Source: an uncultured Bacilli bacterium (GTDB taxonomy: Bacteria > Bacillota_I > Bacilli_A > RF39 > UBA660). Taken from it: a stretch of 64,000 bases of DNA. The first letter of the stretch is position 1. Every line of letters begins with the position of its first letter. Location of the stretch: assembly GCA_934098395.1 (NCBI GenBank), contig CAKOOM010000003.1, positions 88,091 to 152,090 of the forward strand, written 5' to 3'. Below are positions 7,190 to 9,744 of this stretch, in pieces. The notes beneath the pieces were generated by a model. The model was not told the origin of the DNA. It did no database searches and saw only the letters and a program-made list of their open reading frames with translations. A program made the translations under genes and the position numbers.

Positions 7190-7222
7190 TGACTTGTTTT
7201 TTTCTAAAATATTAAAAAATAG

Positions 7223-7235
7223 TTGCATTTTGCAA
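7223..7235. promoter_or_regulatory. Palindrome TTGCATTTTGCAA overlapping the -35 region of the first TasA-like gene (an identical copy lies at 8099-8111)
   Basis: A perfect TTGCA-N3-TGCAA inverted repeat sits inside a 73-bp block that is 100 % identical upstream of the genes at 7278 and 8154. Confidence 0.35.
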
Positions 7236-7277
7236 CAATCTTTGATATCATTATTATAGTAGAGGAGGAAATAAAGA

Positions 7278-8045
7278 ATGGAAAATAAAAAAGGAAACGG
7301 AATATTTTTAGGAGTTATCGGAGTCGCAACATTAATCGTAGCAATAATTGGAGCTACATTCGCATATTTCTCAGCTAGTACAAACTCAGCTGATAATGCA
7401 ATAAGTGTAAATTCAACCCAATTATCATTAGGTTATAGTGATGATACATCTCAATTAAAAACAAACCTAATCCCAGCTACTGATAAAATAGCTAAGTTTG
7501 GTGCAACTGATGCCACACACATTGCTTCAAAAGGTACATGTATCGATGATAATGGCAACGAAGTATGTGGGGTATATGATTTCTTCGTAGGTAACCCAAG
7601 TGGAACTACAGCTCAAAAAATCTATGCTAATATCACTGTTGTAACAAATACATTTGATAATTTATATTTTACAATTCTAGATGAAGACGGAAAAGAGGTT
7701 ATTCCAGCTACAAACTTTAAAGGTACTGGACAAAATGATGACAACACAGTTACTTACAAGACAGAAGAAGGAAAAACAATTCTAGAATTAAAAGCTTTAG
7801 AGCAAACATTATCAGCATCACCTGCAGCAGTAGCAGATGGTGACAAAAACGATGCTTCTAAATATACTTTAAAAGAAGGAACAGACAAAAACTTTAGAAA
7901 ATATAAAGTTATCGTATGGATTCGTGAATCTGGAACAGATCAAACTAGTGCAGACGCTGGAAAAGCATTCTCAGCTGGTATCAACATTACTACTGGGGGT
8001 AGCGGAGCAGGTGTTACTGGTGTAATTGCTGCCGCACAAGCGTAG
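7278..8045 (+). CDS. Secreted protein with a SipW-cognate class signal peptide, TasA/camelysin-like (paralog 1)
   Basis: The N-terminus MENKKGNGIFLGVIGVATLIVAIIGATFAYFSAS matches the SipW-cognate motif (compare GGTFAYFSD in CalY and GGTWAAFND in TasA). It is 255 aa and acidic/Thr-rich, and it has its own RBS GAGGAGG. Confidence 0.6.
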   Translation: MENKKGNGIFLGVIGVATLIVAIIGATFAYFSASTNSADNAISVNSTQLSLGYSDDTSQLKTNLIPATDKIAKFGATDATHIASKGTCIDDNGNEVCGVYDFFVGNPSGTTAQKIYANITVVTNTFDNLYFTILDEDGKEVIPATNFKGTGQNDDNTVTYKTEEGKTILELKALEQTLSASPAAVADGDKNDASKYTLKEGTDKNFRKYKVIVWIRESGTDQTSADAGKAFSAGINITTGGSGAGVTGVIAAAQA

Positions 8046-8053
8046 AAAAACTA

Positions 8054-8085
8054 AACAACACTTTGGTGTTGTTTTTTCTTTTTTA
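8054..8085 (+). terminator. Rho-independent terminator (AACAACACTTTGGTGTTGTT plus a T-run)
   Basis: Hairpin followed by TTTTTTCTTTTTT. Confidence 0.6.
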
Positions 8086-8153
8086 TATAAAAAAACTATT
8101 GCATTTTGCAACAATCTTTGATATCATTATTATAGTAGAGGAGGAAATAAAGA

Positions 8154-8879
8154 ATGGAAAATAAAAAAGGATCTGGTATATTCTTAGGAGTAGTTAGTGT
8201 AGCTACCTTAGTCGTAGCTATAATCGGTGCTACATTTGCATATTTCTCAGCAAGTGTAAGTAGTAACGAAGGAGCTATTGGTGCAACTGCATACGAATTC
8301 GACGTTAAAGTAACTGAAATCAAAATGATTCAACCAGAAAATGTTAATAGTTTAGGTGGAATCATTCCAATGAATGTTAACACACAAGTTGATGGTAAGG
8401 GAATGCTACTATATGCATTAAACGATGCCGCAAAAAAATGTGTAGACTCTAACAATTACCAAGTATGTGCTTTATATGAAGCAACATTATCTAATGGTGG
8501 TAGCCAAGATGTTACATTAAACTTAGCTGTTAAGACAGATACTAATGAAGCTGGAAGTGGCGGAGAAGTTTTCTCTGATTTAACATTCCAAGCATTAACT
8601 GAAACTACTGGAACATACTCACTAAATGGCGCAGCTAAAACTTTAATGGCTACAGCTGGACAATCAGTTGATATTGAAAATGTTAGTGTAACTATCCCAG
8701 CAGAAGCTACAGCTTACAAACACTATTTCGTAGTATACTTAAATGAACCAAGAAATGATGAAGATACTGATGAAAAAGATCAATCTAAACAAATGGGTGC
8801 TAAATACACTGGTTCATTAGTATATACTACTAGCCAAGGTGGTAACAGATTAACTGGTACATTTAACGTTGGTGCATAG
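8154..8879 (+). CDS. Secreted protein with a SipW-cognate class signal peptide, TasA/camelysin-like (paralog 2). Its mature domain diverges from paralog 1, but the first 33 aa and the upstream 73 bp are identical
   Basis: N-terminus MENKKGSGIFLGVVSVATLVVAIIGATFAYFSAS. It has the conserved C-x8-C-x2-Y loop (KCVDSNNYQVCALY). Confidence 0.6.
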   Translation: MENKKGSGIFLGVVSVATLVVAIIGATFAYFSASVSSNEGAIGATAYEFDVKVTEIKMIQPENVNSLGGIIPMNVNTQVDGKGMLLYALNDAAKKCVDSNNYQVCALYEATLSNGGSQDVTLNLAVKTDTNEAGSGGEVFSDLTFQALTETTGTYSLNGAAKTLMATAGQSVDIENVSVTIPAEATAYKHYFVVYLNEPRNDEDTDEKDQSKQMGAKYTGSLVYTTSQGGNRLTGTFNVGA

Positions 8880-8890
8880 AACAAAAACAT

Positions 8891-8912
8891 AAAGCGAGAA
8901 ATCGCTTTTTTC
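8891..8912 (+). terminator. Rho-independent terminator (AAAGCGAGAAATCGCTTTTTTC)
   Basis: Hairpin plus a T-run. Confidence 0.6.
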
Positions 8913-8967
8913 TATTGCAAAAAAAGCATATTTTTGATATCATTAAATAAGAATAGGGATGATTGTC

Positions 8968-9744
8968 ATGGAAGAAAAAAAGAAAAAAACATTATTAACA
9001 TTATTAATATTACTAGCCTTAATAATTCTCGTAGGAATTGGTGGATCTTTTGCATACTTTACCGCTAGCGTCAGCAGTGAAAAAGATGCCGTAAATGTAA
9101 AAGCTGCAGTATTTGAAATTGATCTCGAAGATGATATTTCACTAATTAAAGATAATATCATACCATCAGCAGAAAAATATGTAGATATTGCTAGTAAAAG
9201 ACAAGATGAAAATGGTAACTTTTTAAAACCAACTGTCGATACCGATGGTAAAACTATAACAAAAGGTACTGCTTGTATTGATGATAACCTAAATGAAATC
9301 TGTAGTATCTATACCTTTACCATTATAAACAAAATGACTGATTCCGATGTTCCATTATATATAACCCTTAACCCTAATGTTAATACTTTTAAAAACTTAT
9401 ATTTTAAAGTATTAGATCAAGATTTGAATGAGGTAATACCAGCAACTTTGTTGGTGGACGATCGTGAGTATACAACTGATAGTGAAGGTAACAAAATATA
9501 TGATGCTAATAGTAAAATATCTCCAATTGTTTTGAGTAATATCAATAAAACCTTAAATAGAGCTACTAGCTTAGATAATCCAAGTAAAGTAACATATTCC
9601 ATAGTTATGTGGATTATGGAAACAAATGAATTACAAAATGACTATGATGGTGGAAAAATCTTTGCCTCAACCCTAAATGTAAAAGCCAGTGGAGCCAATG
9701 GTCAAGGAATTACCGGTGTAATTTCTGCAACTGGTACCGAATAG
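8968..9744 (+). CDS. Secreted protein with a SipW-cognate class signal peptide, TasA/camelysin-like (paralog 3). I place the start at ATG 8968 (MEEKKKK...) rather than 8959
   Basis: The signal peptide ...LVGIGGSFAYFTAS. It shares blocks with paralog 1 (NTFKNLYF.VLD.D..EVIPAT, CIDDN.NE.C, V.WI.E, G.TGVI.A). ATG 8968 has better RBS spacing (AGGGA 9 nt upstream) than ATG 8959. Confidence 0.6.
   Translation: MEEKKKKTLLTLLILLALIILVGIGGSFAYFTASVSSEKDAVNVKAAVFEIDLEDDISLIKDNIIPSAEKYVDIASKRQDENGNFLKPTVDTDGKTITKGTACIDDNLNEICSIYTFTIINKMTDSDVPLYITLNPNVNTFKNLYFKVLDQDLNEVIPATLLVDDREYTTDSEGNKIYDANSKISPIVLSNINKTLNRATSLDNPSKVTYSIVMWIMETNELQNDYDGGKIFASTLNVKASGANGQGITGVISATGTE

Follow-up and report, generated by a model that had tools for sequence, protein, structure and literature searches.

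SipW-dependent fibres, such as those formed by TasA, CalY and BsaA, are the chief model of the protein scaffolds of Gram-positive biofilms. Here we describe three adjacent genes (genes 1, 2 and 3) located between polC and aspS in a stretch of 64,000 nucleotides from an uncultured Bacilli bacterium (contig CAKOOM010000003.1, positions 88,091 to 152,090; this whole stretch is referred to below as the window). The products of these genes are predicted to carry signal peptides of the same class as TasA, and they belong to an undescribed, clade-restricted and fast-evolving family of secreted beta-sandwich proteins. The three proteins may work like the subunits of the known fibres, and the evidence for this reading and for the alternatives to it is given below.

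In TasA the mature protein and its donor strand begin at residue 28, directly after T-W-A, and the donor strand comprises residues 28-38 (PMC9674648). The family described here resembles TasA and CalY of Bacillus (PF12389) in its TIGR04088 signal class, with the pattern G-x-T-(F/W)-A-(A/Y)-F running across the cleavage site into the first mature strand, in consisting of small secreted all-beta proteins with about 200-230 mature residues and in being linked to a SipW-type peptidase in relatives. It differs from them in that its mature domain has a signature of its own and resembles theirs in no way that sequence, profile or Foldseek comparison could detect, and in that the window genes are monocistronic, with neither tapA nor sipW in an operon with them, and the family forms arrays of up to 14 paralogs. 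The sipW-bsaA-bsaB-bsaC locus of Clostridium perfringens likewise combines adjacent paralogous SipW-dependent subunits with a larger multidomain secreted protein; multiple paralogs per operon have been reported for the BsaA/TasA family, which, like the present one, is without LPXTG motifs, and donor-strand assembly has been proposed and modelled for BsaA (PMC11580942). Unlike BsaA, the family has no N-E-K isopeptide triad, and it is set beside BsaA by description only. AbpA and other donor-strand fibres are similar to the family in having a secreted beta-sandwich with a flexible N-terminal strand, and in that the cut may be made by an archaeal-type signal peptidase that is not dedicated to the subunits and whose gene lies apart from theirs; a difference is that AbpA, and not the window family, is tied to TasA by profile and structure (PMC9245690).

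Open reading frame (ORF) calling over the 64-kb window, which has a G+C content of about 28%, placed three ORFs on the + strand between polC (2552-7189) and aspS (9938-11677), in agreement with the tandem arrangement given in an initial annotation made from the sequence. Gene 1 is located at 7278-8045 (255 amino acids, aa), gene 2 at 8154-8879 (241 aa) and gene 3 at 8968-9744 (258 aa, ATG start at 8968); the longest possible ORF of gene 3 starts at 8959 and encodes 261 aa, and the start at 8968 is the one chosen in public gene calls and by NCBI.

In all three proteins a short, positively charged N-terminus leads into a hydrophobic segment about 20 residues long, which is followed by the motif IIGATFAYFSAS in genes 1 and 2 and GIGGSFAYFTAS in gene 3, so that the signal peptides end in the common pattern G-A/G-T/S-F-A-Y-F. 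The signal peptide of gene 2 is nearly identical to that of gene 1. When the 64 kb were searched in six frames with a regular expression, the motif was found four times, each time at the N-terminus of an ORF. The TIGR04088 model gave 24.0 bits for gene 3 (cutoff 19) and matched 52 of 100 family members, and the NCBI name of the gene 3 protein is "SipW-dependent-type signal peptide-containing protein". In a profile-profile comparison with hhalign, in which TasA was represented by an alignment of 48 PF12389 proteins, the family sequence I-I-G-A-T-F-A-Y-F was placed on V-G-G-G-T-W-A-A-F of TasA. Only columns 8-53 of the family aligned with TasA (residues 5-49; probability 4%, E 0.009), and this span includes the motif and about 20 residues beyond it, covering the TasA donor strand. 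By analogy with the TasA start at residue 28, the signal peptide of gene 1 would comprise approximately residues 1-29, and the cut is predicted to follow T-F-A29. Among 232 family ORFs the motif is conserved to 87% (G), 72% (A), 81% (T), 85% (F/Y), 90% (A), 86% (Y/F) and 84% (F), a pattern that is in keeping with the -3/-1 rule and speaks for cleavage and against a retained anchor. Judged by sequence and context, the signal peptides of genes 1-3 are thus of the SipW type, and the corresponding claim of the initial annotation is upheld by the TIGR04088 scores, the NCBI name, the alignment to TasA and the peptidases linked to family arrays in relatives (see below).

For gene 1 word-seeded searches returned 1169 relatives and for gene 2 they returned 2102, and none of these relatives had a Pfam domain or a functional name; surveys relying on Pfam PF12389 would overlook the whole family. 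When 1.84 billion representatives were searched exhaustively with a profile, 2187 clusters were obtained at E ≤0.001 and 238 clusters at E ≤1e-30. A scan of one genome per GTDB species yielded 76 related loci (given L numbers where they must be told apart), most of which derive from uncultured gut metagenome-assembled genomes (MAGs) labelled Bacilli, Tenericutes, Firmicutes, Clostridium sp. CAG:914, CAG:762 and CAG:321. The exact window proteins are present in human-gut metagenome assemblies, including Hadza samples, and also in MAGs that are listed at NCBI as "Bacilli bacterium" or "Erysipelotrichaceae bacterium". A local search with a hidden Markov model (HMM) found 224 members in the 76 loci and the window, nearly always in same-strand tandem arrays of 2-14 genes with a median spacer of 96 nt. 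The family signature consists of I-P (P 91%), a Cys pair (84% and 88%), D90, Y100 and N106, with the spacing C-x-D-x6-C-x2-Y-x5-N; the conserved polar residues of the 232-member alignment are D90, N92, N106 and Q222, and the C-terminal half is variable throughout the family. The approximately 20 residues after the predicted cleavage site are conserved and strand-like (F31 84%, A33 75% and, at 42-53, alternating hydrophobic residues), and F31 is aligned with F29 of TasA, one of the contact residues of the donor strand.

In relatives that have the polC-aspS arrangement, PolC is 79-88% and AspS 72-85% identical to the window proteins and the family proteins are 31-63% identical overall, which indicated that the family evolves much faster than its neighbours. 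Orthologues of gene 2 in these relatives show 35-48% identity and those of gene 3 show 52-63%; a counterpart of gene 1 was found only in L001 (50% identity), and gene 1 is thus a recent addition. In gut metagenomes the gene 2 protein is represented by more than 50 distinct 90%-identity clusters at 85-95% identity, suggesting, at the level of sequence comparison, strong strain-level variation. Given this variation and the fast divergence, the proteins are likely targets of host or phage pressure. Two other observations were made on the arrays. In L058 (216-11226) the array has 14 family genes in tandem; ten of them are arranged as five pairs in which products of about 246 and 239 aa alternate, and this array looks like the product of recent serial duplication. 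When L005 and L048 were compared with L007 and L047, the genes 3' of the two family loci were found to be swapped between related MAGs, the ddl-ruvA-ruvB block lying 3' of the polC-aspS locus in one MAG and 3' of a locus with an ATPase gene island (see below) in the other, which indicates a rearrangement with breakpoints beside family genes.

Of the three proteins, those of genes 1 and 3 share 33% identity from end to end (E 4e-36), those of genes 1 and 2 share 39% in an N-terminal region limited to 155 residues, and those of genes 2 and 3 are 24% identical. This agrees with the earlier description of paralogs 1 and 3 as similar and paralog 2 as having a divergent mature domain, and the divergence is found mainly in the C-terminal half. 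The mature protein of gene 1 has a flexible N-terminal strand (residues 30-50) followed by a beta-sandwich with the Cys88/Cys97 pair and a C-terminal GVTGVI strand, and the gene 3 mature domain resembles it; gene 2 has the same N-terminal core with a divergent C-terminal half ending in LTGTFNVGA and constitutes a subfamily of its own. AlphaFold2 predicted an all-beta sandwich both for gene 1 (predicted local distance difference test, pLDDT, 85; predicted template modelling score, pTM, 0.76) and for gene 2 (pLDDT 82, pTM 0.75). Both models have an N-terminal helix, an all-beta core with pLDDT above 90 and a low-confidence, unstructured part at about residues 34-50. Foldseek searches of the Protein Data Bank (PDB) with the two models gave weak, generic Ig-like matches only (query-normalised TM-score, TMq, ≤0.37). 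TTHA1873 and the donor-strand pilin EcpA are common to both lists; further entries are the CooA pilin, a sortase pilin and the adhesin Cnm for gene 1, and SpyCEP domains and the FedF fimbrial lectin domain for gene 2. A literature search on the top matches TTHA1873 and AvmM returned nothing useful.

An archaeal-type signal peptidase gene is located within 10 kb of family arrays in 11 of the 76 related loci, compared with a chance expectation of about one locus in 76 (assuming one such gene per 1.5-Mb genome). These 11 peptidases scored 73-104 bits with TIGR02228, the archaeal/ER-type signal peptidase I model (cutoff 51.85), and the SipW model was matched too. In 8 of the 11 loci the peptidase gene lies directly 3' of the array on the same strand, and in three the peptidase is the C-terminal part of a protein of 380-400 aa. 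In the latter (L043 and L055, 4949-6088 in each; L053, 13291-14490) the SipW-type domain makes up the C-terminal third, the N-terminal region is without annotation, and the gene sits between two family arrays. Directly 3' of sipW several loci have a gene for a conserved membrane protein with N-terminal K-x-x-K-I-V-L-E-E-E followed by a transmembrane helix (L016 12783-14897, L031 16638-18374, L064 12772-14487, L034 4776-5462 and L042 12162-12806).

Genes 1 and 2 also stand out in codon usage. Their NNC-over-NNT codon bias (0.41 and 0.45) is the highest of the 32 window genes, the others having a mean of 0.21 (sd 0.08) and a maximum of 0.35, and it is not accompanied by a rise in G+C at third codon positions. 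Both genes have strong AGGAGG ribosome-binding sites, and the codon bias suggests that they are very highly expressed. Gene 3, with an average codon bias (0.18) and a weak ribosome-binding site, probably encodes a minor component. A fourth family member is located elsewhere in the window, between a phosphoketolase gene and ezrA (35151-36899, + strand, 582 aa, motif GGSLAYFTWQ). Its N-terminal domain (about 185 aa) is family-like, with 28% identity to the short members over residues 10-181. Fused to this is a C-terminal domain (about 400 aa) which is also present in L042, L044 and L046, in proteins of about 600 aa, and which gave a borderline FGE-sulfatase-like match (23.1 bits, cutoff 23.3). 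By analogy with known fibres this protein may be a tip or anchor subunit.

We give a probability of about one half to the reading that genes 1-3 work like TasA/BsaA subunits, being exported by Sec, cleaved by SipW and either forming fibres or coating the surface. The signal peptide of the TasA/SipW class would direct Sec export, and a SipW-type (archaeal/ER) peptidase, probably encoded elsewhere in the genome, would cut after (T/S)-x-A, an invariant pair of small residues, and leave a mature N-terminus Y-F-(S/T)-A. The released mature protein would have a flexible, strand-prone segment of about 20 residues in front of a compact beta-sandwich of about 200 residues, probably with one disulfide, with a conserved N-terminal and a fast-evolving C-terminal half. 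In a last step, the N-terminal strand would be donated to the sandwich of the next subunit, as in TasA and BsaA, with genes 1 and 2 providing abundant major subunits and gene 3 and the 582-aa fusion protein providing minor, tip or anchor subunits. Export, cleavage and release are supported by sequence and context, as far as such evidence reaches; that the cut is made by SipW in this particular genome is something we infer, and polymerisation by donor strand is proposed by analogy. The role in a fibre, a biofilm matrix or a spore coat that the initial annotation put forward is plausible. If the proteins do form fibres or a coat, they would be the major surface structure of a common group of never-cultured human-gut Bacilli with small genomes, and they would show that a beta-sandwich body unrelated to that of TasA can be joined to a SipW signal and an N-terminal strand.

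A number of observations weigh against this reading, and a first group of them concerns the proteins themselves. The comparison with family models that had been proposed in the initial annotation gave a divided result, in that gene 3 exceeded the TIGR04088 cutoff and genes 2 and 1 remained under it (18.8 and 15.2 bits). PF12389 (Peptidase_M73) was matched by gene 2 alone with 13.1 bits against a cutoff of 22.5, and the matching residues (11-65) are those of the signal peptide; weak matches to this model were seen in 14 of 100 family members (best E 0.003). After removal of the signal peptides the hhalign probability against TasA was 0.2%, a profile search of all PDB sequences gave no TasA at E ≤10 and one spurious membrane-helix match, and neither TasA nor AbpA was among the top 50 Foldseek matches of either model in the PDB. 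The claim that the mature proteins are TasA/camelysin-like, which had also called for a comparison of structures with the TasA fold, was thus not borne out: by sequence the mature proteins are not TasA/camelysin, and as judged from the two models kinship by structure is unsupported rather than disproved. With no TasA similarity in the mature domain, the donor-strand mechanism is an argument from analogy. No column of the 232-member alignment has Lys in 55% or more of the sequences; the BsaA-type N-E-K isopeptide triad was rejected as a candidate for this reason, and a BsaA-type isopeptide lock is unlikely.

A second group concerns the expected partners. No S26-type signal peptidase motif was found in any frame of the 64-kb window, and no signal peptidase gene, SipW or other, was present within 10 kb beyond either window end. 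No TapA-like match was found near the three genes, and no TapA-like nucleator, LPXTG motif or linked sortase was detected. The statement in the initial annotation that sipW and tapA are missing from the neighbourhood holds in this respect. Furthermore, in seven MAGs with the polC-aspS arrangement there was no peptidase gene beside either of the two family loci.

The main rival, which we regard as possible if doubtful, is that the proteins are monomeric surface or wall proteins (variable adhesins, coat proteins or antigens) that are exported and cleaved and do not polymerise, with the arrays and the divergence reflecting host or phage pressure on exposed surfaces and not heteropolymer assembly. 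The faster divergence compared with neighbouring genes, the many gene 2 variants of 85-95% identity in metagenomes, the variable C-terminal half and the lack of detectable TasA similarity in the mature domain all speak for monomers, as does the finding that the AlphaFold2 models of the monomers are complete, confident sandwiches with the C-terminal strand in place, as far as models can indicate this. Three other features are less easily accommodated. The 20 residues after cleavage are conserved and strand-like and align with the TasA donor strand, the fusion proteins look like tip subunits, and the split into major and minor components suggested by the expression signals suits a fibre.

A second alternative arises from the neighbourhood of the family in its relatives. 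In 38 of the 76 related loci, genes of one conserved island are located within 10 kb of the array. The island is seen directly 5' of the array in L048 (421-10672) and also in L013, L016, L018, L021, L026, L030, L047, L071 and others, and in some loci the order is island, family array and then SipW. It encodes a protein of about 1850 aa, two proteins with an N-terminal anchor, an ATP-synt_C protein of 82 aa (37 bits, cutoff 24), a b-like protein, alpha-like and beta-like F1 subunits, an epsilon-like protein of 86 aa, a protein with five transmembrane helices, a gamma subunit (PF00231, 94 bits) and a coiled-coil protein; a and delta subunits were not recognisable in the island. Helix 2 of the c-like subunit (82 aa; L048 2717-2965 and its counterparts in 28 further loci) is devoid of Asp and Glu in 29 of 29 loci, and a ring made of this subunit would thus be without the usual ion-binding carboxylate. 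The beta-like subunit scored 458.1 bits against an atpD cutoff of 462.85, and the alpha-like subunit was also under its atpA cutoff.

F1-like X0 ATPases have been described as specific to mycoplasmas (PMC3369863, PMC12994834), in which an atypical F-type ATPase is found beside tandem surface-protein paralogs and is needed for their function (PMC12994834). The island of the relatives is similar to the type 2 and type 3 mycoplasma systems in that alpha-, beta-, gamma- and epsilon-like subunits occur together with unrelated membrane proteins, in that an a subunit is missing and in that it lies beside tandem arrays of surface-protein genes (PMC3369863, PMC12994834). It differs from them in gene order, in the presence of the carboxylate-less c-like subunit, in scores below the NCBIfam cutoffs and in its host, a walled gut Bacilli bacterium. 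Membership of the island in mycoplasma types 2 and 3 was considered and rejected: with the NCBIfam models of the mycoplasma F1-like types (the MMOB1660/1670 and MSC_0619/0618 families) all scores were below cutoff (382 against 600, 315 against 520, 405 against 570 and 357 against 850), the order differs from 12TM-P2-gamma-epsilon-P5-alpha-beta, and a c-like subunit is present. No report of F1-like ATPases in RF39, Erysipelotrichales or Acholeplasma was found in the literature.

It might then be supposed that an atypical F-type ATPase machine, loosely like the mycoplasma F1-like ATPases that serve gliding or MIB-MIP surface proteins, has the family proteins as its substrate or working part outside the cell. 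We regard it as unlikely, on present data, that the family is the outer part of such a new machine of gut Bacilli, having a carboxylate-less c-ring and no a subunit and being a cousin of the mycoplasma F1-like X0 ATPases, and similarly improbable that the window genes are an outlying, highly expressed array of its subunits. Besides the frequent proximity of island and array, this idea would account for the array having stayed with the island despite the rearrangement downstream (L047 compared with L048) and for the presence of both locus types in the MAGs syntenic with the window, which have the polC-aspS array and a single family gene behind the island. The absence of the helix 2 acid and of an a subunit argues against an ordinary proton ATPase, and the mycoplasma combination of an ATPase with arrays of surface paralogs provides a parallel (PMC12994834). 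On the other hand, the island is present neither in the window nor in its 10-kb flanks. The island alpha- and beta-like subunits are 72-89% identical among loci, which indicates a fairly narrow clade, and inherited synteny is for this reason a real alternative to functional coupling. The beta-like score is so close to the atpD cutoff that the cluster may be a housekeeping ATPase, and there is no mechanism that ties an F1 motor to Sec/SipW substrates. The island of the relatives could illuminate the origin of the mycoplasma F1-like ATPases.

The least probable of the alternatives, that genes 1-3 are true but extremely diverged members of the TasA/BsaA superfamily with the same jelly-roll fold by common ancestry, is improbable in view of the 0.2% hhalign probability of the mature domain, the PDB profile search without TasA and the Foldseek lists without TasA or AbpA, although the signal peptide and first mature strand are common to the family and TasA, the BsaA/TasA superfamily is far wider than PF12389 (632 of 2,172 proteins are in M73) and includes Coprobacillaceae (PMC11580942), and AbpA was tied to TasA solely by profile-profile or structural comparison (PMC9245690).

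Two kinds of pilin were also considered as candidates. Type IV pilin-like proteins with a class III signal peptide were rejected as there is no Glu at position +5, and neither an A24 prepilin peptidase motif nor a GspE-type ATPase was found in 1.2 Mb of related loci. Sortase-assembled pilins were rejected as no ORF of the loci or the window has LPXTG with a hydrophobic tail; sortase-like motifs occurred in two loci only, about 10 kb from the array.

The intergenic regions of the locus were examined for promoters and terminators, and a sigma-70-like promoter was found upstream of each of the three genes. Terminator-like sites were more frequent in this region than expected (7 compared with 1.1). 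The promoter region of gene 1 (7222-7257, + strand) can be read as TTGCAT-17-TATCAT with a TG element or as TTGCAA-16-TATTAT, and it is overlapped over the -35 region by the palindrome GTTGCATTTTGCAAC (7222-7236). A terminator-like hairpin with a T-run follows gene 1 (hairpin 8053-8074, whole element 8053-8084, + strand). In the promoter region of gene 2 (8098-8133, + strand) the palindrome and the 5' untranslated region (UTR) are identical to those of gene 1, and gene 2 is likewise followed by a terminator-like hairpin with a T-run (hairpin 8891-8908, whole element 8891-8916, + strand). Gene 3 has a promoter-like site (8915-8943, + strand, TTGCAA-17-TATCAT with TG), and the scan of the region found no terminator of its own. 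The proposal that every gene has its own promoter and terminator thus stands for genes 1 and 2, and for gene 3 it stands with respect to the promoter only.

Genes 1 and 2 are preceded by 75 nt (7215-7290 and 8091-8166) that are 100% identical and comprise the promoter, the palindrome, the 5' UTR and the GAGGAGGA ribosome-binding site, and in the signal-peptide codons that follow the two genes differ at many synonymous sites. This combination points to selection on the regulatory module or to its local conversion, as judged from the sequence comparison. The palindrome TTGCATTTTGCAA was considered as a family-wide operator and rejected, given that a survey of the regions upstream of 230 family genes elsewhere showed it to be present only in this species.

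Directly 3' of gene 3 there are a consensus promoter (9748-9775), which belongs to aspS, and a short aspS T-box leader of 138 nt (9757-9894) that scored 40 bits compared with the Rfam gathering score of 93 (E 1e-6). In another part of the window, 3' of ezrA (38988-40373), two adjacent ORFs encode very Pro/Asn/Gln-rich proteins of 289 and 168 aa with one transmembrane helix each.

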